This document shows, piece after piece, positions 20,852 to 64,000 of a stretch of 64,000 bases of DNA (the first letter of the stretch is position 1; every line of letters starts with the position of its first letter). Origin of the DNA: a plasmid; sequence record NZ_CP033968.1; one strand, given 5' to 3'. A program made the translations under genes and the position numbers. The notes under the pieces were generated by a model. That model saw only the letters and a list, made by a program, of their open reading frames with translations. It had not been told where the DNA came from and did no database searches.

Positions 20852-20984
20852 CTACCTGGAAGCCCGATCGTTGCCCATAAGGCCTGCCGAACCGGCAGGC
20901 CTTTTTCATATAGTCGTGTGGAGGACATATCAGTCCACAAGGCCCATGGATCGGGTTTGATCACCCATGCTCAAGGAGATACTC

Positions 20985-21335
20985 ATGAATGAAGCAATCA
21001 CCACGCAAGTAATGGTCTTCACGAACGGTCGGATCGCCATTCAACTCTGGGCTGATGAGGGTCCATACGCCAGGCTGAACGTGAACCTGCCCGATGAAGC
21101 CTTCGCAGACGATGAGATCGCCATCAACTGGGATCTCGACGACAGCGTCCTGAAGTCGATTCTTGACCTCAACAAGTTCCAGGAAACCGATCGCGTCGTT
21201 CGCTCCGGACACGCCGTTTGTGCGGTCTGGAAAGTGGTCTGCCCGGAGATGCTTCAGGAGGCCGCGCAACTGCGCAAGCAGATCAGGCGCCATACGAGCC
21301 GCCGGACGTCGATGAGTAAGGCTGCCATGCACTGA
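20985..21335 (+). CDS. hypothetical acidic protein
   Basis: AAGGAGATACTC upstream of MNEAITTQ. Confidence 0.5.
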   Translation: MNEAITTQVMVFTNGRIAIQLWADEGPYARLNVNLPDEAFADDEIAINWDLDDSVLKSILDLNKFQETDRVVRSGHAVCAVWKVVCPEMLQEAAQLRKQIRRHTSRRTSMSKAAMH

Positions 21336-21362
21336 CAGCTCACTGCACTTAACCCTGCACCA

Positions 21363-21403
21363 CCCCCGCTACGCGTTATCGCGAGCGGGGGTTTTTTCTT
21401 TTG
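21363..21403 (+). terminator. rho-independent terminator
   Basis: CCCCCGCTACGCGTTATCGCGAGCGGGGG followed by TTTTTTCTTTT. Confidence 0.75.
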
Positions 21404-21421
21404 GTCTTTCCATTTTTCGGC

Positions 21422-21450
21422 TTGACCAAAATAACAGTAACACGTAACAA
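21422..21450 (+). promoter_or_regulatory. candidate sigma70 promoter of the MTase gene (TTGACC, 17 nt, TAACAA) in an AT-rich stretch
   Basis: Read from sequence. Confidence 0.35.
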
Positions 21451-21480
21451 TACGGCAACTGAAGCCGTCAACTAAACAAG

Positions 21481-22365
21481 ATGAACGACCAGGACAAGAT
21501 TCGCCAATTGGGGCAGTACCCGACGCCCGCGTTGAACGACCAGGACAAGATTCGCCAATTGGGGCAGTACCCGACGCCCGCGTGGGCGGCGGAGCAGCTT
21601 GTCGAGCGGTACTTCGGCGACCTCGGGCGAGACGACCTTGTTATCGAGCCGGCCTGCGGCCCTGGCGCTTTCCTTGGGGCAATTCCGACTGATGTGCCGG
21701 CGATCGGCGTTGAGATTGATCCACTGGCGGCCGAGTGCGCGCGAGTCGCGACCGGACGCGAGGTAATCACTGGTGACTTCTGCACGGTTGACTTGGAGGC
21801 GAGGCCCACGGCAATCATCGGCAACCCTCCGTTCAAGCTGGCGCTGGTGGACAAGTTCCTTGCTCGCGCACATGCATTGCTGCCGGAAGGGGGGAGGGTT
21901 GGATTCCTTCTGCCGGCCTACGCGTTCCAGACCGCGAGCCGCGTAGTGGACTACAACCAGCGTTGGACCATCGCGCAGGAGCTCGTGCCGCGGAATGTGT
22001 TCGATGGCTTGCGGCTCCCCTTGGTGTTCGCGCTCTTTCACAAAGAGCGCCATCGCAGGCTTCTGGGATTTGCCTTGTTTCACGAGACCGTTGCTGTGCA
22101 CCGCATGCAGGACGACTACCAGTTCGTTCTGAAGCAGGGGAGCGGCCCCATTTGGCGCAAGGTTATCGAGCTTGCGCTACGCCGCCTGGGAGGTGAGGCT
22201 AGCTTGGCTGATATTTATGAAGAGCTGCAGCGCAACCGTCCAACTGACACCCGTTGGTGGAGAGAGAAGATCCGTCAAACCTTACGGCGTTATGCCGAGG
22301 TATTTGTTGTAAAGGGGGAGGGAAGATATGCGCTGTCCGCCTCGCCCAACTGTACAGGCGCGTAG
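21481..22365 (+). CDS. gamma-class N6-adenine DNA methyltransferase
   Basis: Motif X GQYPTP, motif I IEPACGPGAFLG, motif IV IIGNPPF, in gamma order (X, I, IV); 294 aa. Confidence 0.8.
   Translation: MNDQDKIRQLGQYPTPALNDQDKIRQLGQYPTPAWAAEQLVERYFGDLGRDDLVIEPACGPGAFLGAIPTDVPAIGVEIDPLAAECARVATGREVITGDFCTVDLEARPTAIIGNPPFKLALVDKFLARAHALLPEGGRVGFLLPAYAFQTASRVVDYNQRWTIAQELVPRNVFDGLRLPLVFALFHKERHRRLLGFALFHETVAVHRMQDDYQFVLKQGSGPIWRKVIELALRRLGGEASLADIYEELQRNRPTDTRWWREKIRQTLRRYAEVFVVKGEGRYALSASPNCTGA
21482..21583 (+). repeat. perfect 51-bp tandem duplication (2 copies) inside the MTase 5' end
   Basis: TGAACGACCAGGACAAGATTCGCCAATTGGGGCAGTACCCGACGCCCGCGT repeated head-to-tail; encodes NDQDKIRQLGQYPTPA twice, in frame. 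Confidence 0.95.
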
Positions 22366-22429
22366 GCGGTTCCGCAATCAGCCGGTTGCGGCGACCGTCG
22401 TGGTCGTCTCGGTAATCAAGGAGTGGGTG

Positions 22430-22684
22430 ATGTCGAAGTCGTTGTTGGTGCGGATTGCATTCTGTGCGTCCATCTTTGTGCTGCTCGTGGGAATCGTCGG
22501 CCTAGCGCTTTGGCTCGGCGCTGCCTTGCCGATGAACGGGTTATCAGGTGGGTCAAGGCTTACCAATGGGCTAATGTGGTTGGCTAGCTTCCTCGCTCTA
22601 TGCCTGCTTGTCGCCCAGATTCCTTCGTGGTTCCGGGGAAAGCGTCGGAGCGAGCCGCTCGAAGGTCGTCAATGTGGAGAATAG
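22430..22684 (+). CDS. small membrane protein
   Basis: AAGGAGTGGGTG upstream of MSKSLLVRIAFCASIFVLLVGIVGLALWL. Confidence 0.45.
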   Translation: MSKSLLVRIAFCASIFVLLVGIVGLALWLGAALPMNGLSGGSRLTNGLMWLASFLALCLLVAQIPSWFRGKRRSEPLEGRQCGE

Positions 22685-22685
22685 T

Positions 22686-23111
22686 ATGGGTACTTACCTG
22701 AGGCTGATCTTGAAGAATGCTCTCAAATGCGCGTTGGCCGCAACGCTCCTCGGCCTGACGCAGGCCGCCAACGCGATTGAAATGAATCTGGCGTCAACAG
22801 ACGCGGTCGTGGACAAGGCCAAGTTCACGGAGGTAGTGACCCAGTTCCTTCCCGCCAAGGTCCAGGCCCTTGATTCGAACTACAGGCTGATTGGAGTCAT
22901 GGAGACCGCATCCTATCGGGACGGAGAGCGGTTCTTCTACTACAGCCTGATGCTCCACAAGAAGGTGATCGACCGCGACAGTGGCAAGACGTACTGGGCC
23001 GTTACCGGCGGCATCCGTGCGCATGGCATCACCGCCGGCGGCGAAGAGTTGATCAAGCATGTACGTGAAGACCTGGTGCTGGGCGCCAACTCATTCCCCA
23101 TGGATCAATAA
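22686..23111 (+). CDS. secreted protein of unknown function
   Basis: Signal peptide [30 protein letters not shown]. Confidence 0.5.
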
Positions 23112-32468: not shown

Positions 32469-32485
32469 TAAATTTGTGTTTTGTG

Positions 32486-32529
32486 TCGCGCCATTAAGGT
32501 CGGTACGTCGCGCCATTAAGGTCGGTACG
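32486..32529 (+). repeat. 22-bp direct tandem repeat (2 copies) with an inverted partner at 32569-32582
   Basis: TCGCGCCATTAAGGTCGGTACG twice; CGTACCGACCTTAT downstream is its reverse complement. Confidence 0.9.
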
Positions 32530-32835
32530 CGGGGCTTTCAATCGCCCGCAAAGCCTTGCTGGAGGCGGCCGTACCGACCTTATCCATTTGTTGTTGCCGA
32601 TTATTTGCCACGGATAACGACAAAAATATCATGAATTCTAATTGTCATTGTTGGTACAGATTGGCGCATTCGAGTGCTGACATCATCAAAACCTGATGTG
32701 GGCCGTTTGCCGTTCGCTGACTAGTCCCTGCGCGGTGCTTTTGGCGCTTCCAGACAAATGTGCTGCATAACGTGAGGGCCAAGCTGATTGGACAACCGGC
32801 GCTTGGCGATCAAGGCAAATAGAGGAGAGCAAGCT

Positions 32836-33942: not shown

Positions 33943-34692
33943 ATGGCTGGTGTTGTATCTCGACGAGCGTCCAAATCTGTGAAAGCGATCGCGGACGAGC
34001 TCGATGATGGCTATCGCCACCGAATGGCAGAAATGCTGAGGTTCATGCTGAGCGAAATCATGGTTATCTGGGGCTTCCCTGCGTGGGACCCGGTTCCGGA
34101 AGTTGTCCGCGGCAAGATCACCAACGCGATATCGGCCTACGATACGGCGGTTGCAGAAGAAGAGCCGTTCCTCGATCTCCTCGGCCCGCTCTACCAGGAG
34201 CTCTCGAGCCGTGGTGGCAAGCAGCAGCTCGGGCAGTTCTTCACGCCGTGGAACCTTGCAAAGCTGATGGCTCATTTGACTATTCCACCCGATCCCCAGG
34301 AGGACACAAGCGGCAGGCTTATCGCAACCTGTGATCCCACCTGTGGCAGCGGGGTGCTGATGCTCGCGGCAGCGAGTGCTGTCCTCGAGAAGGAAGGCGC
34401 CGCGGCTCTCCGGAAGTGGAGTTTCCATGGGTGCGACGTTGATCCGATCTGCGCGCGGATGATGGCCATTCAGTTCCTCGCGAACTGTGCGAGCCATCGC
34501 ATCGAGGTTGGTGAGGTGGTCGTGTTCCGGGGGGATAGTTTGAACCTCCAAGTGAAAAAGGAGCTGATCACGCACGCGAGTGCCCCGGGTCTGGCCGTCA
34601 TGCCAGCGAATGCACCAGGGCGACAAAAGCTGCTCGCGGACACCGCCCGCGGCGCCGGCGTGACGCCTGTCACCGCGGATTCCATGGAGTAA
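33943..34692 (+). CDS. SAM-dependent MTase-like protein, with N6-MTase motifs X and I but no motif IV
   Basis: GQFFTP (motif X) and ATCDPTCGSGVLM (motif I) present; no NPPF/NPPY anywhere downstream in any frame; GGGAGA upstream. Confidence 0.45.
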   Translation: MAGVVSRRASKSVKAIADELDDGYRHRMAEMLRFMLSEIMVIWGFPAWDPVPEVVRGKITNAISAYDTAVAEEEPFLDLLGPLYQELSSRGGKQQLGQFFTPWNLAKLMAHLTIPPDPQEDTSGRLIATCDPTCGSGVLMLAAASAVLEKEGAAALRKWSFHGCDVDPICARMMAIQFLANCASHRIEVGEVVVFRGDSLNLQVKKELITHASAPGLAVMPANAPGRQKLLADTARGAGVTPVTADSME

Positions 34693-41274: not shown

Positions 41275-41689
41275 CGGTACGCTGTGGCGCGCATGGTGAT
41301 CGGGCAGCGGGCCGCCGCAGAGGAGGGTTACGGCAAGTTGGCGTCCCCTTTCTGTTCTCCTGGTGTACATCTCTTCTCGCAAGGACTTTCCAACAACCCC
41401 CAGGGCGTTCCTGCGTATTTCGGGGCGCGTGATCAGCGATTTCGGGGGAACGTGATCACCTGTTTCGGGCGGATGCTGATCGCTGGTTTCGGCGGAACGT
41501 GATCACTTCGGCGATGCCGCCGAAATCGGTGATCAGCTTCCCGAAACGAGTGATCACGTTGCCGAAATAGGTGATCAAGCAGCCGAAATGGGTGATCACG
41601 CACCGCAATGGGGCCGGGGTTAGGGGTGGGACTGCGCATGGACTAGAACGCCGGCGATACGCTGCTTCCTTTTTCAAGGAAGCAAGCTG

Positions 41690-44006: not shown

Positions 44007-44147
44007 TCACCTACGCTACAATCTCCTGACCGCGCAGTACCACCTTCCTTCCCTGATCACGTTCGCCGAAACCGCTGATCACCTTCACCGAAATCCGCAG
44101 CGTTCCGTGCCTTTGGGGCGCGGGCGACTGGATATCAGGAGCATATT

Positions 44148-54119: not shown

Positions 54120-57100
54120 TGCTGCCCCGCCTGATTGAGTTTTCTTTGCGCCAGCGTGTACTGGTGCTGATCGCGGCCGGCGTGCTTGCTGCCGCTGGCG
54201 TCTGGGCTTACCTGAACCTGCCGATTGATGCGTTTCCCGATATCTCGCCGACGCAGGTCAAGGTCGTGCTCAAGGTGCCGGGCATGACGCCGGAAGAAGT
54301 CGAGCAGCGTGTCTCGACACCCATCGAGCAGGAACTGCTCGGCCTTCCGCATAAGACGATCGTGCGCTCGGTGTCCAAATACGGCATCAGCGACGTGACG
54401 GTCGATTTTGAAGAGGGTGTGGACGTCTACTGGGCACGCCAGCAAGTGTCGGAGCGCCTGGCAGGTCTTGCCCGCGACCTGCCGTCGACAGCCGTGGGCG
54501 GCCTAGCGCCGATCACCACGCCGCTGGGCGAGATGTTCATGTTCACCGTGGAGGGCGACGGCTACTCGCTGGCGGAGCGGCGCCGAGTGCTGGACTGGGT
54601 CATCCGGCCGGCGTTGCGCACCGTTCCTGGCGTGGCCGATGTAAACGCATTGGGTGGCGAGGTCCGCAGCTATGAGGTAACGCCCGATCCGGCACGCCTG
54701 CGTGCACGGGGGGTGACGCTGGAGCAGCTGCGCCAGGCGCTGGATGCCAACAATCGCAACGATGGTGCGGGCCGGCTTGATCGCGGTGACGAGCACTGGG
54801 TGGTCCGCGTGGAAGGCGGCGTGCGCGGGCTCGACGATCTGCGAGCGATTGTCGTGGTGCCAGCGCAGAGTCCGGCGTCCAACCCTGCCGTCACCGTGGG
54901 CGATGTGGCCACCGTGCAGCTGGGTGAGGCGACCCGCAACGGCGCTGTCAGCAAGGATGGCAACGGTGAGGTAGTCGAAGGGCTGGTGCTGGGCCTGCGC
55001 GGCAGCGATGCCCGCAAGCTGGTCGAGGCGGTACAGGAACGGTTGGACACGCTTGGCCCTCAACTGCCCAAGGGCATGTCGGCACACGTGTTCTACAACC
55101 GTGGCGAGCTGGTGACACGCGCAGCCAACACGGTGGTGCGTGCGCTGATTGAAGCCAGCGTGTTGGTGGTCATCACGCTGTACCTGTTCCTGGGCGGTGT
55201 GCGGGCGGCGCTGGTGGTGGCGGCCACGCTGCCGCTGTCGATGCTGGCGACCTTCCTGCTGATGCGCTACGTGGGCCTGACCGCCAACCTGATGAGCCTG
55301 GGTGGACTGGCCATTGCTCTGGGCATGCTGGTGGATGCGGCGGTCGTTGTGGTGGAGAACATCGAGACTGCCATGGCGCGTGCCCAAGACCACAAGACCG
55401 ATCCAGCGCTGCGCGGGGCCGTGATCCGTCACGCAGTGGCTACCGTTGCAGTGCCGATGCTCTCCGGCGTTTCCATCATCGCCATCGTGTTCCTGCCGCT
55501 GTTGTCATTGCAGGGGCTGGAGGGCAAGTTGTTCGGGCCGGTGGCGCTGACCATCGTGCTGGCACTGGCCTCGTCTGTGGTGATCGCCTTTACGGTCGTG
55601 CCGGCGTTGGCCTCCATGCTGCTGCTCGCGCATGCGGATGAGGCGCCTTGGCTGATGCGCAAGGTGGCGGGTGGCTTTGCCCGCCTACAGGCCTGGACCA
55701 CGGCGCGCCGCCGCATCGTGTTTGGCGTGGCGGGGGCGGCGCTGGTCGTGGCGGTGGTGCTGTACATGTCAGTCGGCAAGACGTTCATGCCGACCATGGA
55801 CGAAGGCGATCTGATTGTGCAGTTGCAAAAGGCGCCGTCTGTTTCCCTGGCAGCATCGCTGGACCTGGACCAACGCGTGCAGCAAGCGCTGCTCAAAGAG
55901 GTGCCCGAGATCCGCTCCATCGTGGCGCGCTCCGGCTCCGACGACCTGGGCCTGGACCCGATGGGTCTGAATGAGACCGACACCTTCCTGGTGCTCAAGC
56001 CCAAGGACCAGTGGCGCGGCAGCAAGGAGGACATCGCGACAGCCATTCGTCACGTGATGGAGCGCTTCCCCGGCGTGATCTATGGCTTCACGCAGCCGAT
56101 CGAGATGCGCGTGTCGGAGATGCTGACCGGTACGCGCGGGGATATCGCCATCAAGCTCTTCGGCAGCGATCTCGCCGCTATTGACGCGGCCGCACAGGCC
56201 ATTGCTGCCAAGGTGCGCTCCATCCGTGGCGCCGCCGAGGTGATCGCGCCCAGCAACAGTGGTGTGCAGTACCTGAAGGTCTCGCTGGATCGCGCGGCAG
56301 TCGGCCACGCTGGCTTTACCGGAGATGCCCTGCAAACGCAGTTGCGAGCCCTGATCGAAGGTGACCGGATTGGCGTAGTGCCCGAAGGCATTGTGCGTAC
56401 ACCGCTGATTCTGCGCGGCGGAGCGGGCCTGCGCCAAGCGCCGGAGAACCTCACCGGCCTCCTGGTGACGGCGCCAGATGGCAAAACTTGGCCGCTCTCG
56501 TCTCTTGCCCGCATCGAACGCGTGGACGGGCCGGTGCGCATCAACCATGAAGACGGAGCCCGGTTTGCTGTGATCCAGGCCAACGTTGAAGGCCGGGATC
56601 TGGCCGGCTTTGTGCAGGAAGCACAGGGTGCGGTTGGCAGCATCAGCACGCTGCCGAAAGGACTGCGTGTTGTCTGGGGCGGCCAGTTCGAGAATCAGCA
56701 ACGTGCGGCGGCGCGTCTAGCACTGGTCGTGCCGCTGGCCTTGGGCGCCATCTTTCTGCTGCTGATGCTCACGTTCCGCTCGGTGCGGCAGGCGGTGCTG
56801 GTCGTCGCCAACATTCCGTTTGCACTCGTAGGCGGCATCGCCGCGCTGCGGATATCGGGCGAGTACCTGTCGGTGCCGGCCTCCGTCGGCTTTATCGCGC
56901 TGCTCGGGATCGCGGTGCTCAATGGTGTGGTGCTGGTCTCGCACTTCAACACCTTGCTGGAGTCGGGCTCGAGCATGGCGGAAACCGTGCGTGTGGGCGT
57001 GCAAGACCGCCTGCGGCCGGTGCTGATGACAGCCTGCATTACCGCACTGGGGATGATTCCGCTGCTATTGGCGAGCGGGCCAGGGTCGGAGATTCAACGC

Positions 57101-57232
57101 CCGCTGGCGATCGTAGTGTCGGGCGGGTTGCTTTCTTCGACGGCACTGACGCTGCTCCTGCTCCCCTTGCTGTTTGAACGCTTTGGTATGCCCCGGGCCC
57201 GGACGGCCGACGGGCAGGGAGATTTGCAATGA
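54116..57232 (+). CDS. heavy-metal efflux RND transporter (CusA/CzcA family)
   Basis: 1038 aa; N-terminus MMLPRLIEFSLRQRVLVLIAAGVLAAAGVWAYLNLPIDAFPDISPTQVKV is characteristic of the HME-RND family; 12 TM segments. Confidence 0.9.
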   Translation: MMLPRLIEFSLRQRVLVLIAAGVLAAAGVWAYLNLPIDAFPDISPTQVKVVLKVPGMTPEEVEQRVSTPIEQELLGLPHKTIVRSVSKYGISDVTVDFEEGVDVYWARQQVSERLAGLARDLPSTAVGGLAPITTPLGEMFMFTVEGDGYSLAERRRVLDWVIRPALRTVPGVADVNALGGEVRSYEVTPDPARLRARGVTLEQLRQALDANNRNDGAGRLDRGDEHWVVRVEGGVRGLDDLRAIVVVPAQSPASNPAVTVGDVATVQLGEATRNGAVSKDGNGEVVEGLVLGLRGSDARKLVEAVQERLDTLGPQLPKGMSAHVFYNRGELVTRAANTVVRALIEASVLVVITLYLFLGGVRAALVVAATLPLSMLATFLLMRYVGLTANLMSLGGLAIALGMLVDAAVVVVENIETAMARAQDHKTDPALRGAVIRHAVATVAVPMLSGVSIIAIVFLPLLSLQGLEGKLFGPVALTIVLALASSVVIAFTVVPALASMLLLAHADEAPWLMRKVAGGFARLQAWTTARRRIVFGVAGAALVVAVVLYMSVGKTFMPTMDEGDLIVQLQKAPSVSLAASLDLDQRVQQALLKEVPEIRSIVARSGSDDLGLDPMGLNETDTFLVLKPKDQWRGSKEDIATAIRHVMERFPGVIYGFTQPIEMRVSEMLTGTRGDIAIKLFGSDLAAIDAAAQAIAAKVRSIRGAAEVIAPSNSGVQYLKVSLDRAAVGHAGFTGDALQTQLRALIEGDRIGVVPEGIVRTPLILRGGAGLRQAPENLTGLLVTAPDGKTWPLSSLARIERVDGPVRINHEDGARFAVIQANVEGRDLAGFVQEAQGAVGSISTLPKGLRVVWGGQFENQQRAAARLALVVPLALGAIFLLLMLTFRSVRQAVLVVANIPFALVGGIAALRISGEYLSVPASVGFIALLGIAVLNGVVLVSHFNTLLESGSSMAETVRVGVQDRLRPVLMTACITALGMIPLLLASGPGSEIQRPLAIVVSGGLLSSTALTLLLLPLLFERFGMPRARTADGQGDLQ

Positions 57233-58485
57233 GGTTGAACATGTTTCGCTTCGCATTGGCCGGAGCCGGCGTGATGCTGCTTTGCGGCGCCACCGCCCAA
57301 GCGCAGAACACGCCGGGCTACCTACCCGCTGAGAGCTCGGTGCGTGAAGCGGTTGCGCAATCGCCCGAGGTGATGACGGCCGAAGCCCGGCGCGATGCCA
57401 CGCTGGCCCGTGCCGAAGGCATTCGAGCGGGGACGGCCGAGACTGTGGTGAGAGCGATCGGACAGGGGCGTCAGGTCCGAGATCCGTCTGAGCGACATGC
57501 GGAAGGGCAGATCGCCGTGGAGCGGCCGTTGAGGCTGTGGGGCAAGGCTCAAGCCGATGGCCAGCTTGCTGATGCGGCGGCCGAGGCTGGCCAACTTGCG
57601 GTGAAGGACGCACGCCACGAAGCATCGCGGCAGATCCTCTCGCTGTGGTTTGCTGCTGTGCGGGCTGGGCAAGCACGCCAGGCCGCTCAGGAGAATGCCC
57701 GGGCTGCGGCCGAGTTGGCGACGCTGACGGCCCGCCGGGTCCAGTTGGGTGACGCTTCGCGCTTGGACGGTGAACTGGCAGCAGCGGATCAGGCTCGCAT
57801 GCAAGCCGCACTGGCGACGGCCACTGCAGCCGAACAGGCCGCGCAGGCGGAACTGCAGGCCCGTTTTCCGGGGTTGCCCCGGCCCATGATGGCCGCTGAC
57901 ACCGCGCTGCCCGTGTTGCCGCAGGACCCACCGGAACGATTGCGCACGCAGTACATACAGGACAGCCACGAGTATCGGCTTGCCATGGCGGAAGAGGTGC
58001 AGGCACAGCAGATGGCCAAGCGGGCAGATCTGGAGCGCCGGCCCGATCCCACCGTCGGCATGTTCGTATCGGTGGAGCGTGGTGGTGCGGAACGCATCAT
58101 GGGAGTGAGCGTGGCGATGCCGCTCGGCTCGGCGCATCGCCGTACTGCCGCAGCAGCGGCCGCGGCCGATGCGGAAGCTGCAGCTCGCCGCAGACTCGGT
58201 GCAGAACGACGCCTGGGTGCGGAATTCGACGTGCTCTATCGTGACCTGCAAGGCAAAGGGGGAGCCGCGCAAGCACAGATCGAAGCGACTACGTTACAGA
58301 GACGCGCAGCCGACCGCGCCACCCGCGCGTTTCGCGCCGGCGAGTCCGGCTTGACCGAGCTGTTGGTGGCACGCCGCGGCCTTGCCGACGCAGTGTTGGC
58401 CGAGCGGCTCGCTCGGGTGAACGTACTGGAGGCGGACAGCCGGCTCCAGCTGGATCTGCATCGCATGTGGGATTTCGATGACTGA
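57229..58485 (+). CDS. outer-membrane efflux factor (TolC/CzcC family)
   Basis: Signal peptide; two repeated coiled-coil halves; 4-nt overlap with the RND gene. Confidence 0.85.
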   Translation: MRLNMFRFALAGAGVMLLCGATAQAQNTPGYLPAESSVREAVAQSPEVMTAEARRDATLARAEGIRAGTAETVVRAIGQGRQVRDPSERHAEGQIAVERPLRLWGKAQADGQLADAAAEAGQLAVKDARHEASRQILSLWFAAVRAGQARQAAQENARAAAELATLTARRVQLGDASRLDGELAAADQARMQAALATATAAEQAAQAELQARFPGLPRPMMAADTALPVLPQDPPERLRTQYIQDSHEYRLAMAEEVQAQQMAKRADLERRPDPTVGMFVSVERGGAERIMGVSVAMPLGSAHRRTAAAAAAADAEAAARRRLGAERRLGAEFDVLYRDLQGKGGAAQAQIEATTLQRRAADRATRAFRAGESGLTELLVARRGLADAVLAERLARVNVLEADSRLQLDLHRMWDFDD

Positions 58486-58598
58486 TCTTGAGCAACGCCT
58501 GACATGCCCCATGAATAGATAGCGATAACCATCAACGTGGGTGCGTTCGCAACGACCGAAGCAGCGGCGTACTCCACGTGTCCTAACGTAGATGAATC

Positions 58599-59525
58599 AT
58601 GCGACATCCCGAAGACCTCGATCTCAAAATCGACCTGGATACCGAAGACAGTGCGACCAAGCAGGCAGCCGCACGGCGCAGCACGCTGGTGAGCGTGGGC
58701 GTCAACCTGAGCTTGACCGTTGCACAAGTCGTGGCGGGCATCCTGGCCGGCTCCCAGGCGTTGGTGGCCGATGCCATCCACTCGTTGTCCGATTTGATCT
58801 CGGACTTCGTTGTGCTGTTTGCCAGCCACCACAGCCAGAAAGGGCCGGATGCAACTCACCACTATGGCCATCAGCGCTTCGAGAACGCCGCGTCGCTAGT
58901 GCTCGGATTGCTGTTGCTGGCCGTCGGCGTCGGCATGCTTTGGAATGCAGTAGTGAAGCTGGAGCACCCCGAGGCCATTCAGCCAGTCAAGCTCATCGGC
59001 CTGTGGGTCGCTCTCGGGGCGCTGGCGGCAAAGGAGCTGCTGTTCCGCTACATGCTGGCCGTTGCCGAGCGTGTGCGCTCCAGCATGCTGGTCGCCAACG
59101 CATGGCATGCACGCTCGGACGCCGCCTCGTCGCTGGTGGTGGCGCTCGGCATTGTGGGCAATGTGTTCGGCTACCGCCTGCTTGATCCTGTAGCGGCTCT
59201 GATCGTCGGCCTGATGGTGACGCGCATGGGTTGGCAGTTCGGGTGGGAGGCGCTGCACGATCTCATGGACCGTGCCGTCGACCAGGAAACCGTTGAGGCG
59301 ATCCACCAAACGATGCTGGAAACGCCCGGCGTGCACGGCGTACACGACGTCAAGACCCGCCGCATGGGCGACATGATCCTGGTCGATGTCCACCTGGAAG
59401 TCGATGCGCGTGCCAACGTGAGACAAGGCCACGACATTGCATTGGAAGCGCGGCGCCGCGTCATGCTGCGCCGCGATGTGCTCAACGTAATGACCCACGT
59501 GGACCCTGTGGAGGCGCCAACCTAA
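58599..59525 (+). CDS. cation diffusion facilitator (CDF) family metal efflux protein
   Basis: Six TM helices; ADAIHSLSDLISD and HHYGHQRFENAASL motifs; C-terminal cytoplasmic domain. Confidence 0.9.
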   Translation: MRHPEDLDLKIDLDTEDSATKQAAARRSTLVSVGVNLSLTVAQVVAGILAGSQALVADAIHSLSDLISDFVVLFASHHSQKGPDATHHYGHQRFENAASLVLGLLLLAVGVGMLWNAVVKLEHPEAIQPVKLIGLWVALGALAAKELLFRYMLAVAERVRSSMLVANAWHARSDAASSLVVALGIVGNVFGYRLLDPVAALIVGLMVTRMGWQFGWEALHDLMDRAVDQETVEAIHQTMLETPGVHGVHDVKTRRMGDMILVDVHLEVDARANVRQGHDIALEARRRVMLRRDVLNVMTHVDPVEAPT

Positions 59526-59679
59526 ACGCGAGGGAGGGCAGTTTTTTGATCTGCGACAACTGTTTTCCGTATCGCGGCGGCGATCGATCAGAAGTCGCTG
59601 CTCCGTAACGGGGCATGCGAGTACATAGATGTTGTACTGCGCAGCCATGATTCACACACTCCAATTTCTAGGTGGTTTT

Positions 59680-60204
59680 ATGCGCTCTGAACAGAAGTAC
59701 TCCCTTGCCATGCGATCCCTGCATTGGCTGGTATTCCTGGCCGTCACGATTGCCGTGGTGGCGATCGAGATCCACGACTTTTTTCCCAAAGGCAGCACCG
59801 CGCGCACCGCGGCATTTGCGGTTCATCAGACCGCGGGGCTGTCCGTGCTCGCGTTGATGGTGCTGCGTTTATTTGTCCGCTGGGGAACCCAGCCGCCGGC
59901 ACCGGTCCCTGGCCCACAACTGCTGCAGCGTGCAGCATGCCTCACGCATGGCGTGCTCTACCTGTTGATGGTCGGGATGCCCATTCTTGGCGTGCTGGCG
60001 CTGGCCTGGGGTGGTAAGCCGATTCAGCCGTTCGGGCTGACTTTGACGCTCCCCCTTTTGCAGGACAAGAGCTTGGCGAGCCTCAGCAAGGAGGTGCATG
60101 AGTCAGGTGCCACGCTCGTGTACATCTTTGTTGGGCTGCATGCGGCCGCAGCGCTCTGGCATGAGTTCATGCTGAAAGACCGATTGTTGCGTCGCATGAT
60201 CTAG
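59680..60204 (+). CDS. cytochrome b561 family protein
   Basis: LHWLVFLAV..., HQTAGL..., LHAAAALWHEF heme-ligand His pattern; 174 aa; GGTGG upstream. Confidence 0.7.
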   Translation: MRSEQKYSLAMRSLHWLVFLAVTIAVVAIEIHDFFPKGSTARTAAFAVHQTAGLSVLALMVLRLFVRWGTQPPAPVPGPQLLQRAACLTHGVLYLLMVGMPILGVLALAWGGKPIQPFGLTLTLPLLQDKSLASLSKEVHESGATLVYIFVGLHAAAALWHEFMLKDRLLRRMI

Positions 60205-60424
60205 CGCAGCAAACGGTTCTTCCAGGTCGCTATTCGTGCAGGCCCATCGTTCATGGAATCCGGCTTCCGTCATCTCAATATAGCGCTGCTCGCTGTCTCG
60301 GCCGCGACGCTGGCGGCCGGATTGTTGGCGCGCTACCTGCGGGCCGACCAAGATAAGCCGACCCGCTATCATAAGCCTCTCGGTGATGAAGGCGGCGCTT
60401 GTTATTTCGTTTGGTAATTAGGCG

Positions 60425-60670
60425 TCAGGCCGGTTTTGGCCGCTGGCCAGCGCGTCCAACTGGCGCTTTCTTCAACACATCTACCAACCGGCGCGTCGTT
60501 GCCGCCTCGGTCTCGGCGCGCTCAGCGCGTCGCAGCGCTTCCTGCAGCTGCAACTGAGTCTGCGCCAGTTGATCGGCCGCCGCGCGCAGCTGAGCCACGG
60601 CGGCGTCTGCCTGCTGCTGCGCCCCGCCCAGTTCCGCGCGCAAGGCGCCGATCGCGTTGGCGTGCTGAAC
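60425..60670 (-). pseudogene. 3' fragment of a coiled-coil protein gene truncated by the IS1071-like element
   Basis: The minus-strand frame is open up to the IS boundary at 60670; Ala/Gln-rich coiled-coil. Confidence 0.3.
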
Positions 60671-63600
60671 GGGGTCTCCTCGTTTTCAGTGCAATAAGTG
60701 ACGGTACGAAAAGCTAGCACTGGCGCGGAGGTGGTGTTGGTAGATCGTTGATTTCATTGACTTTCCTGTTCACTTTCAAATCTGCGATTCGTGGCGTCAA
60801 ACCGTGGTCGGTTTCATCCATTGGTGCCAGTTATCGATGCATTTGGCCGCGAAGGCAGGATTTGGTCAGCATAGCGGTCAACCGGGAAGCGAAACACACC
60901 CCGCAAGTTGATGCTCTCCAGCCTGGTGGGCGCAATCTTCCCGATCAGTTCCGGTGGAATGACCTGGCGGCGGTTCGACCAGCGATCCAGGACCGCCTGC
61001 ATCTGTGAGGTATTCCACGCCATCACGATGTTGGCCATCAGGCTCAACGCATCGGCCACAGCCTGCATTTCATCGACACGTTTGGCCTGCGCCGGGCTGA
61101 TCCGGCCGGTATAAATGGCGCGCTTGAGGGCGTTAACAGCCTCGCCCCGATTGAGCACCCGGCGCAACTCGTTCCTGAAAGCGTCCTTGACAAAGTAGTC
61201 AGCCAAAAACGCCGTACGCAGCAACCGCCCCAATTGCACGCCAGCCTCATAGATTGGATCGCCCTGGGCGGCAGAACCGAACCGCGCAAGAGCTGCCACC
61301 GCACTGGCATGTCCGCTCATGACCGAGGCTGCCAGGTGCACCAGACTATCCCAATGCTTTTCGATCAAAGCGACGTCGACATTGGCTTCGCACACCGCAG
61401 CGATTTCTGCGGGCACTTTGGTGCCGCGTGGCACAAAGAGGTGGCGCTGTTTGAGTTCCTTCAACCGCGGGCAAAGATCAAAACCAAGCAAACGGGCATG
61501 TGACATGGCAAAGTCGGTGTAGCCATGGGTATCCACAGCAAGCTGGCTGGTCTCCAGCTTTTCTTGGCGGATGACACCTTCAATGGCCACGCCCGCCTGG
61601 CGCTCATTGAGCACAAAGGGCTGCGCATGGAAGATGCCCCACCGGTCTTTTACATGGGAGTAGATTCCAATGGAAGGTGTGTTGCGCCGAGGATCAAGCC
61701 GGGCTTGCCACACCCGTTTGGTGGTCTCCATGCTCATCATGTCAGAAGATGCCAAATCGGACCGCCCCCAGGTGGCGGCAATCGGGTGTCGCTGCATGAA
61801 TTCCAGCACAGCCTGGCAGGCCTGGCTCAGACGCCGTTCGTCCCGCGCCCAGCGCATGGCCTGGCGAATGCTGGTGGCAGACAATTGCGGAATCATGCGC
61901 GCGCATTCGACCGCAGTCAGACTGGTGCCGTGGGCCATGATGCCGGCATAGACCATCAGCAGCTCGTCGGTAGAGCGCGGCTCACGTCCGAGCATGATCC
62001 AGCTAAAGCGCACCTGGGCGTCAACGGCCAGAATCACTTCCGGCAATTGAACCTCACCGATGCGGTGATCCAAAGCCGCGCGCAGCTTGGTCACTTCTGG
62101 GTCTTCGTCCTCTGCGGGCAATGGCGACAAATGGAGTTCATCATCCACGCGCAGTACGCCACTGCGGGCTGCAGCGGCCACCGCATCGACACCGGCAGTT
62201 ACTCTGGCCAGCAAAGGCTTCAAGAAAGTGGCAGCCTTGCTGGGTAACGATAGACGGGCATAGTGTTTCTTGGACTCTGCCTGCCAACGCTCGTCCGTGA
62301 AGAACAAGCGCGCACGACCCCGAAAGCTCAGGCTGTGCTCAATCCAGACCGAGCCATTGCGCACCGCGCGGCGCAGGGCAAACAGGGTGGCCACCTCCAA
62401 CGCCTGAAACGCCCGTTCCCGGTCTGGGCTGGAGATCGAAACCTGCCAGATCATTCCCAGACTTGGTGCCACCACTTCAACTGGCAGCTTTCTGGATCCT
62501 TTGAGATATAAAGCTTGCAGCTTGGCAAGGTACTCGATGGCAGGATGCTCGCCGGTGGCCTGCCAGGGCAGCTTTGCAATGGCGACGAGCAACGACCGCA
62601 CGGGGCGAATTCCATCAATCAATCCCTCGCGGACCAGGGAGGCCCTGCTCGGTGGTTTGCGTTTCTGGGTTTCGGTGATCAAGGCTTCAAGACGGGCACG
62701 CAACTCAGCATCTGGCACCGCACCTTGCGCGCTCAAGGCAACAAGTTCGCCGAGCAGCGTTTTGTACATTGCGGCCCAATTGACGGTAGCGGGGACATCG
62801 GCGGCAGCCTGACGCCACAGATCGGCGATCCGGCGCTGCACCATAAGGATCAACTGGTCTGTGGTGGTGAACAGGCAATACCGAAGAAAGCATGCGACCT
62901 CCACGGTGCGCGCTGGCTCTTTGATCTTGGCTCCGGCTGAGGGCGGCCTGGAGACAAGTCGGCGCGCGTAGCGGCGCAAGATGAGATCGGGGATGTCTGC
63001 CAGGTGCTTATGAACGTCCAGCGTGTAAAGCAGGTCGATGCGCTCCAGTACCTCGCTGATTTGGCGGGTTGAGTGTTTCGCCGGTGCAGCCCATAGCCAA
63101 CTCTGCTGGGTTTGTCCATCTGGGCGCAGCTCTGAAACTGAGGCTCGCCAGCGATCAAGTGTTGCTGGATCAACGCTGGCGGCGATGGCGGTGCCTGTTT
63201 CAACTTCAAGCTGGGCAAGTGCCGCCGCAATCAGTGTCCGAATTGCCCGCTCGTGCACGATCACCAGCTTGTTCTTGTACAGCCATTGACGCGCCCGCAC
63301 GAGTAGCTGATCGCGGTCGGCGCAGCGCGCCACTTCGTCGCGCAGTTCACGTACCAGTGAGCGGCGCTGGTGCTCGCTCATCCACTGGAATCCAAGGACC
63401 GTGCAGGCTACTTGTTGGTGATCGAATAGCGTGCGCCCGCGTTCATACATGGCTCTCAGCGAGGCGACTTCTGGTGCTGCAATGCCAAGCTCGTTGCCAA
63501 GGTGGCGCCACAAGGCTACTGGAATTACCCGAAAGGCACCGAGCAAACGCCCACTCATGCGCAGGAAACCAATATGGAGCGCCAGACCAAGCTTGTGGGA

Positions 63601-63874
63601 ATCACCTCGGCGTGCATTGATTGCGTCGCGCTCGGCACCATCGAAGGTGAAAAATGCCTTCATCTCGAAGTCGCTGATATCGCGGGGGAGCCCACGCATC
63701 CCCAAAAACGTTGTGTGCCAACCCTGCATCGTGAACCTCAAAAGTGGGAGGCCACCATACCCGTTTACAAAGCGAACAGGAAAGTCAATGAAATCAACGG
63801 TCTACCCAGACCACCCCCGCGCCAGTGCTAGCTTTGCGTACCGTCACTTATTGCACTGAAAACGAGGAGACCCC
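60671..63874 (-). mobile_element. IS1071-like Tn3-family element (3204 bp, about 110-bp terminal inverted repeats, no TSD)
   Basis: Left inverted repeat GGGGTCTCCTCGTTTTCAGTGCAATAAGTGACGGTACG...; the right end is its reverse complement with only a few mismatches over about 105 bp; contains only tnpA. Confidence 0.85.
60814..63741 (-). CDS. tnpA: Tn3-family DDE transposase TnpA
   Basis: 975-aa ORF with the Tn3-transposase C-terminal DDE region (DTHGYTDFAMSHARLLGF...). Confidence 0.9.
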   Translation of the reverse strand: MRFTMQGWHTTFLGMRGLPRDISDFEMKAFFTFDGAERDAINARRGDSHKLGLALHIGFLRMSGRLLGAFRVIPVALWRHLGNELGIAAPEVASLRAMYERGRTLFDHQQVACTVLGFQWMSEHQRRSLVRELRDEVARCADRDQLLVRARQWLYKNKLVIVHERAIRTLIAAALAQLEVETGTAIAASVDPATLDRWRASVSELRPDGQTQQSWLWAAPAKHSTRQISEVLERIDLLYTLDVHKHLADIPDLILRRYARRLVSRPPSAGAKIKEPARTVEVACFLRYCLFTTTDQLILMVQRRIADLWRQAAADVPATVNWAAMYKTLLGELVALSAQGAVPDAELRARLEALITETQKRKPPSRASLVREGLIDGIRPVRSLLVAIAKLPWQATGEHPAIEYLAKLQALYLKGSRKLPVEVVAPSLGMIWQVSISSPDRERAFQALEVATLFALRRAVRNGSVWIEHSLSFRGRARLFFTDERWQAESKKHYARLSLPSKAATFLKPLLARVTAGVDAVAAAARSGVLRVDDELHLSPLPAEDEDPEVTKLRAALDHRIGEVQLPEVILAVDAQVRFSWIMLGREPRSTDELLMVYAGIMAHGTSLTAVECARMIPQLSATSIRQAMRWARDERRLSQACQAVLEFMQRHPIAATWGRSDLASSDMMSMETTKRVWQARLDPRRNTPSIGIYSHVKDRWGIFHAQPFVLNERQAGVAIEGVIRQEKLETSQLAVDTHGYTDFAMSHARLLGFDLCPRLKELKQRHLFVPRGTKVPAEIAAVCEANVDVALIEKHWDSLVHLAASVMSGHASAVAALARFGSAAQGDPIYEAGVQLGRLLRTAFLADYFVKDAFRNELRRVLNRGEAVNALKRAIYTGRISPAQAKRVDEMQAVADALSLMANIVMAWNTSQMQAVLDRWSNRRQVIPPELIGKIAPTRLESINLRGVFRFPVDRYADQILPSRPNASITGTNG

Positions 63875-64000
63875 CAATCCGACAAGGCGATCAACTCGTT
63901 CAGTTCGTCGTCTGGGATCGAGAGCAACCAGGCACGTAGCTCATCCTCATTCATCTCGACCGGGTTCTTGTCGAGGTCTACGATGCGCCAACGCAACCGC

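Follow-up and report, generated by a model that had tools for sequence, protein, structure and literature searches.

The window (the whole stretch of plasmid DNA analysed, 64,000 nucleotides) holds a methyltransferase (MTase) gene whose first codons are duplicated perfectly, in tandem and in frame, and the encoded protein opens with two copies of the conserved motif X. The reading we prefer, at a probability of roughly two in three, is that of a single, recent and stably inherited duplication that gives the enzyme a near-neutral N-terminal tail and does not act as a switch. The duplication allele is ordinary in kind and previously undescribed, yet it is already in RefSeq; a striking repeat in a catalytic motif would thus be an ordinary lineage-marking structural polymorphism, with little import for biology at large. 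The stretch searched (window 20900-22700) is 100% identical to plasmid p1 of Cupriavidus metallidurans BS1 (pBS1, NZ_CP037902.1), which has 364 kb and is typed as conjugative (MOBP, MPF_F).

TRF (period 51, 2.0 copies, 100% matches, 0 indels, score 204) identifies a perfect tandem repeat of 2 x 51 bp at 21482-21583 and a second repeat search returns the same two copies (Table 1). The repeat begins at nucleotide 2 of the open reading frame, which starts with ATG 21481; the translation opens MNDQDKIRQLGQYPTPALNDQDKIRQLGQYPTPAW, the N-terminus being MNDQDKIRQLGQYPTPAL-NDQDKIRQLGQYPTPAW. The head-to-tail arrangement of two identical units that the earlier note described is therefore borne out by both searches and by the translation. 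The chance expectation for a perfect adjacent 51-nt repeat in the window is ~5e-23. An in-frame stop codon lies at 21460-21462 and no other start codon is found between it and ATG 21481, which makes this ATG the unambiguous start of the unduplicated gene. The unit length (51 = 3 x 17) corresponds to 17 codons and the reading frame is intact in one-copy and two-copy alleles. Copy 2 joins the rest of the protein as single-copy alleles do (PTPAW-AAEQLVERYF); copy 1 is missing in all one-copy loci (L007-L016, L018, L038 and L039). The 25-mer spanning the junction of the two copies is CGACGCCCGCGTTGAACGACCAGGA.

Table 1. Positions of the features in and around the MTase gene (window numbering).
Feature	Position (nt)	Strand	Remarks
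Terminator-like hairpin ACCCCCGCT/AGCGGGGGT with T-run	21362-21399	+	End of upstream 122-aa gene
Sigma-70-like promoter TTGACC-18-AACAAT	21422-21451	+	Conserved in both upstream contexts; untouched by the duplication
MTase ORF, 294 aa (WP_017510886.1)	21481-22365	+	RefSeq: 'class I SAM-dependent methyltransferase'
Copy 1 of 51-bp unit (TGAACGACC...CCCGCGT)	21482-21532	+	Residues 1 (part)-18; extra motif-X-like LGQYPTP, L10-P16, nt 21508-21528
TTG formed where copy 1 meets copy 2	21532-21534	+	
Copy 2 of 51-bp unit	21533-21583	+	Native-position motif X, L27-P33, nt 21559-21579
Motif I EPACGPG	21646-21666	+	E56-G62; alignment to M.TaqI
Motif IV NPPF	21823-21834	+	N115-F118; alignment to M.TaqI
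C-terminal three-helix + hairpin, winged-helix-like domain	~22150-22335	+	Residues ~224-285; AF2 model

A target-site duplication or the remnant of an att site was considered as the source of the repeat and dropped, since no sequence lies between the copies; we know of no transposable element with 51-bp target duplications. The palindrome CCAATTGG inside the unit was discounted as a site of regulation or recognition; it is the coding sequence for Q-L-G of motif X, and the residue before these varies in the family. The minus-strand open reading frames that cross the repeat were set aside as unsupported, typical spurious antisense frames of high-GC DNA.

The protein resembles M.TaqI. A phmmer search of the PDB sequences finds M.TaqI (E 1.7e-4), with LGRVETP of TaqI aligned to the second LGQYPTP (residues 27-33), and the motifs follow one another in the order X-I-IV, their columns being invariant or nearly so in 62 family members. 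Pfam gives no family above its cut-off (the best, Eco57I, reaches 13.2 vs 25.3 bits) and the NCBIfam matches are all far under their cut-offs; the PADLOC profiles MTase_II and mad2, which are models without a curated cut-off, match with E values of 1e-10 to 1e-15, the alignments of both beginning at residues 16-26. The AF2 model, calculated from an alignment of the 62 family sequences, has a mean pLDDT of 89.2, with ~49 over residues 1-20 (a low value that is partly expected over copy 1, where the alignment holds no homologous residues) and >=95 from residue 31. Foldseek matches the model to M.BseCI (E 2.7e-10), M.TaqI (E about 1e-9) and CamA with an r.m.s.d. of 3-4 Å over ~200 columns and, at similar scores, to the Erm/KsgA/Dim1 rRNA adenine-N6 MTases and the tRNA MTase Trm11. 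Taken together, motif order and fold matches make the predicted catalytic class, an exocyclic amino-methyltransferase of gamma motif order with a Rossmann fold, well supported. RNA amino-MTases score equally by fold, and the substrate, likely to be DNA, cannot be read from the fold by itself. The earlier note had described the duplicated QYPTP as motif X of an N6-adenine MTase; motif X and an M.TaqI-like amino-MTase stand, but the N6-adenine DNA substrate is only likely. The protein shares with the gamma class of M.TaqI and M.BseCI the motif order X (LGxxxTP)-I (EPxCGxG)-IV (NPPF/Y) and the class I Rossmann fold. Unlike M.TaqI, it is much smaller (277 aa in its native form), lacks a TaqI-type target-recognition domain and bears, in the modelled fold, a winged-helix-like C-terminal domain of ~60 aa. 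The family to which it belongs, with 878 relatives at E <= 1e-3, is widespread, uncharacterised and small in protein size, with this winged-helix-like C-terminal domain.

Among the 120 best homologues (53-98% identity) motif X is always single, and an N-terminal duplication occurs in none. One copy is likewise present on two finished plasmids, those of C. campinensis MJ1 and Cupriavidus sp. EM10; in MJ1 the gene order is the same (HU ... lepB, 78 aa, 116 aa, MTase ... cheY, TPR), at 91% identity. The related loci in species-representative genomes comprise one close relative only, with one copy. Residues 18-294 of the two-copy product recur unchanged as a 277-aa protein (P0124), which is encoded by one-copy DNA in L009 (ENA) and L016 (an NCBI MAG), where a C5 cytosine methylase gene stands upstream of the MTase instead; the parental allele therefore still circulates. 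One-copy homologues, sister plasmids and parental allele together mark the two-copy state as the derived one by sequence comparison. With copies that match at 100% and relatives that have one copy, the duplication is perfect and evolutionarily recent, as had been proposed. Compared with the window, the two-copy loci carry 0 substitutions in their flanks over distances of up to 3.0 kb on the upstream and 3.8 kb on the downstream side, with the exception of L006, which has 1 in 1,288 nt downstream; the backbone of L002, also a two-copy locus, diverges ~1.8 kb upstream.

Exact look-up among ~15 billion proteins returned no 3-copy (311-aa) protein and, for the two other common allele backgrounds (P0001, P0123), no protein with 2 copies. 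Pattern searches of contigs gave no match for the A-type flank pattern in metagenome contigs and none for the junction pattern in genome contigs; the unit-internal pattern hit one metagenome contig, an already-known one-copy sequence. Reconstruction of the one-copy sequence gives 0 bp of microhomology between the breakpoints, and slippage between short direct repeats was ruled out as the origin on this ground. It follows that the duplication would be an illegitimate, rare event and that a contracted allele would lack a template for re-expansion; we infer an origin by illegitimate, microhomology-free duplication. With one allele background, no 3-copy allele and no microhomology at the junction, the two-copy allele looks like the product of one event, and its distribution over lineages agrees with inheritance from a single event and not with switching. 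The earlier note had taken uniform two-copy reads, together with two copies in the orthologues, as the sign of a fixed repeat. The consensus is two-copy in all inspected carriers, but the orthologues are not fixed at two: relatives have one copy and the repeat is polymorphic between lineages.

Records of the exact 294-aa protein come from 14 contigs, and the DNA of all six loci inspected (pBS1 and L002-L006) contains two exact 51-bp units. L003 is a draft genome (GCA_000335695.1), which may be Cupriavidus sp. HMR-1; L004 belongs to GCA_977007475.1 and L002, L005 and L006 to ENA metagenome assemblies. The pBS1 sequence was assembled from PacBio RS II reads with Illumina polishing (PMC7019866; BioSample SAMN08974431). 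Assemblers can introduce or collapse short tandem duplications and the data are consensus sequences throughout; however, at least six records, which differ in project and platform, contain identical two-copy DNA and leave an assembly or polishing artefact hardly any chance, and short-read assemblers tend to collapse such repeats and not to create them. The agreement of separate projects and platforms (pBS1, the draft genome, another NCBI assembly and the ENA metagenomes) excludes mis-assembly for practical purposes and answers the suspicion of an artefact that had been voiced earlier. On these assemblies, several of them independent, the two-copy repeat is real and sits on one allele background. 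The gene of this Cupriavidus plasmid was also seen in a MAG labelled Cutibacterium sp. (L016, GCA_020254085.1) and in several metagenome assemblies, an occurrence that could reflect contamination or mis-binning.

One further locus, L008, gives the only hint of contraction. Over 6.8 kb it differs from the window by nothing but the 51-bp indel, and it is the sole one-copy locus on the identical upstream backbone. Both L007 (SRR9003212) and L008 (SRR35124194) are Logan assemblies, and Logan uses k=31; at the repeat, 21 k-mers are repeated at k=31 and none at k=55. The 294-aa protein is missing from the Logan sources, though present in NCBI and ENA assemblies. L008 may thus be a two-copy allele collapsed at k=31, in which case it cannot show whether contraction has occurred, and collapse of short tandem duplications such as this one may be systematic in Logan contigs. 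Assemblies at k=31 may in general lose the 51-bp duplication silently.

Perfect tandem repeats are prone to slippage, and the earlier note had envisaged a phase-variation-like mechanism in which slippage changes the copy number and so turns the MTase on or off or alters its activity. On that reading the number of repeats would shift at high frequency, toggling or tuning the MTase within a population. Phase variation is high-frequency reversible switching, usually via simple sequence repeats, and the REBASE survey required at least 3 units where the unit is >= 3 bp (PMC7383803). In favour of such switching, one-copy and two-copy alleles of an otherwise identical protein are both in public data, and L008 matches the window over the length given above except for the indel; L008 may, however, be the product of k=31 collapse. 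Against it, 51 bp are 17 codons, so that a change in copy number cannot shift the frame and an on/off frameshift is impossible. Two copies are fewer than the usual minimum of three units (PMC7383803), and with 0 bp of microhomology one copy cannot regenerate two. The consensus shows two copies in 6/6 two-copy loci inspected; no 3-copy and no independent 2-copy allele occurs among the ~15 billion proteins, copy numbers in consensus sequences being 1 and 2 only, with two copies on a single allele background. The protein, too, is predicted to change little. We consider a phase-variable switch very unlikely, and this part of the earlier proposal is not supported.

Set beside known systems, the repeat is no tract of the phasevarion type. 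Phasevarions (Type III mod, Type I hsdM/hsdS) resemble the locus in that a repeat lies inside an MTase gene and its copy number could change by slippage. They differ in having many 1-7-bp units that shift the frame reversibly and at a high rate (PMC7383803), whereas here two 51-bp copies are in frame, the open reading frame is intact, the promoter and initiation region are unchanged, and neither a route from one copy to two nor a range of copy numbers is observed. Among modification enzymes, the closest parallel to such an in-frame repeat difference comes from hsdS of EcoR124I/EcoR124II: its TAEL repeat exists as alternative plasmid alleles with 2 vs 3 in-frame 12-bp units that change the recognition spacer from N6 to N7 (PMC7383803). 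The TAEL repeat lies between two target-recognition domains and its effect on specificity is demonstrated, whereas the repeat described here forms an N-terminal extension before the catalytic core and has no evident geometric role.

A terminator-like hairpin ends the upstream gene, so the MTase gene would have its own promoter; a consensus terminator scan did not call this hairpin, which has a 13-nt loop. The promoter is followed by a leader of ~22 nt with no Shine-Dalgarno motif. The two-copy allele keeps promoter, leader and ATG as they were, together with the first 52 nt of coding sequence. Opening the mRNA from -20 to +20, with an assumed transcription start, is predicted to cost 8.7 kcal/mol as against 9.4 kcal/mol in the one-copy allele. 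Initiation at ATG 21481 should therefore be unaffected by the duplication, and this ATG is probably the start used.

The databases differ on this point. RefSeq starts the protein at ATG 21481 (294 aa), and the 277-aa P0124 (AZG12218.1/QBP14621.1) is also recorded, on a contig that matches pBS1 in length (364,407 bp). The MTase gene has a single locus on pBS1, with none elsewhere in the window; this rules out a second, single-copy paralogue as the source of the 277-aa protein, which can arise only from calling the junction TTG 21532 as start. The two matching places given by the search that identified pBS1 probably stem from alignment of the repeat with itself. GenBank (TTG 21532, 277 aa) and RefSeq (ATG 21481, 294 aa) evidently annotate the same DNA with different starts, an inconsistency that the duplication itself brings about. 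If TTG 21532 were the functional start, the normal 277-aa enzyme would be made and copy 1 would be an extra 5' leader. TTG is a legitimate bacterial start codon and the GenBank entry QBP14621.1 (277 aa) on pBS1 matches such a call; but ATG 21481 retains its full native promoter, leader and downstream 51 nt, the ATG is the start in every one-copy relative and the one called by RefSeq, no Shine-Dalgarno-like sequence precedes the TTG, and ribosomes coming from the ATG would read through it in frame. We hold initiation at the TTG to be improbable.

In the course of events that we favour, one illegitimate event would have duplicated the 51 bp that follow the A of the start codon on a pBS1-type Cupriavidus megaplasmid, and translation would proceed from the unchanged ATG with unchanged promoter and leader. 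The resulting protein would be the usual enzyme, lengthened at its N-terminus by a 17-residue tail that repeats motif X; it would fold around copy 2, with the native junction to the helix AWAAEQLVERYF kept and copy 1 as a flexible extension. Such an allele would be near-neutral and would have spread together with the plasmid. Slippage or single-strand annealing can reduce a perfect repeat of 51 bp to one copy, and with no template back to two copies the allele would be unstable in one direction only. The lead before motif X in 119 homologues is 5-40 aa long (median 9) and reaches >=27 in 6/119, and that of the two-copy allele is 27. From the model and these lengths we infer that activity is retained and the allele is near-neutral. 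The duplication is a clean marker of one sub-lineage of pBS1-type Cupriavidus megaplasmids, in isolates and in low-biomass metagenomes.

Motif X lines the cofactor pocket in MTases of gamma order, a role with which the M.TaqI alignment agrees, and the earlier note had argued that its duplication could alter or abolish activity. The extra motif X, or the tail as such, could perturb AdoMet binding or folding, the allele being fixed by drift or by an advantage of lost methylation; competition between copy 1 and copy 2 for the cofactor pocket is also conceivable. None of the 120 homologues carries such a duplication (0/120), and perfect copies and identical flanks mark the allele as young, leaving little time for purifying selection. 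On the other hand, copy 2 is in its native context and the model is confident from residue ~25-31, N-terminal leads of 27-40 aa are natural in the family, apart from the duplication the open reading frame is intact and matches the parental P0124 exactly, and the allele has spread to several hosts and samples. A loss or change of function is thus unlikely; of the earlier argument an altered activity stays conceivable but is not favoured, given the native junction of copy 2 and a tail within the range of family lead lengths. A more speculative variant, which we think highly improbable, makes the 17-aa tail a cis decoy for the cofactor or the N-terminal docking site that damps the MTase, one-way contraction restoring full activity in a subpopulation of plasmids; were it true, the conjugative megaplasmid would carry a 'spring-loaded' allele for epigenetic bet-hedging. 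Should the tail modulate activity, the two natural alleles are a ready pair for studying the N-terminal motif X region. Retained activity with a near-neutral tail is still the reading that we prefer.

Among the neighbours within ~4 kb Pfam and PADLOC gave no nuclease or defence hit, nor does the annotation name a restriction endonuclease, several of these neighbours being uncharacterised small proteins; the recognised ones are a CheY-like receiver, a TPR protein and an HTH regulator, and the rest are small proteins without assigned function. As far as a partner is detectable nearby by these means, the MTase is apparently an orphan (solitary) enzyme, in keeping with the earlier designation. It lies in a long co-oriented run of small uncharacterised genes together with HU, H-NS and a second N6 MTase. 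This second N6_Mtase-domain protein has 237 aa (window ~33979-34692; L001 25080-25793), is encoded 11.6 kb downstream of the MTase and matches PF02384 (E 3e-11) over profile positions 21-121 of 311 only; it may be a truncated or minimal MTase.

Upstream of the MTase, synteny with other carriers breaks sharply ~75 bp before the ATG (window ~21405), just 5' of the conserved MTase promoter. The upstream genes in the window are lepB, a 78-aa gene and the 122-aa gene; in most other carriers (P0001 contexts; L007, L009-L016) a 645-aa C5 cytosine methylase (PF00145) and a 257-aa uncharacterised protein take this position. The module from MTase to TPR downstream is common to the window and the other carriers. 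Compared with orphan MTases of conjugative plasmids (anti-restriction/establishment genes such as leading-region MTases; PMC11541004), the likenesses are a solitary MTase with its own promoter on a MOBP/MPF_F megaplasmid, a second N6 MTase nearby and, in sister elements, a C5 MTase directly upstream. In its gene content the plasmid context resembles the establishment/anti-restriction regions of conjugative plasmids.

Other features of the window were noted in passing. A perfect tandem duplication of 22 bp x 2 (GTCGCGCCATTAAGGTCGGTAC) lies at 32485-32529, apparently between genes, with an inverted partner GTACCGACCTTA ~40 nt downstream (32571-32582); the ~300 bp around it are ~89% conserved in pMOL30 of CH34 and other Cupriavidus replicons, and nothing is annotated there. 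Two opposed sets, each of about four units of ~21-23 bp, occupy 41417-41612 (also 44053-44098); the units at 41417-41612 read TTTCGG(N)...TGATCA and then CCGAAA(N)GGTGATCA, each holding the palindrome TGATCA. Judged by its sequence, this array, which adjoins a gene of the PAPS-reductase family, looks like iterons or a centromere. At ~54400-64000 (record 103191-113607) a VgrG/DUF4123/DUF3304/DUF2235 cluster, putatively of the type VI secretion spike/effector kind, stands beside Tn3-family transposases, integrases and an IS6 transposase; the whole is an accessory island of the plasmid.
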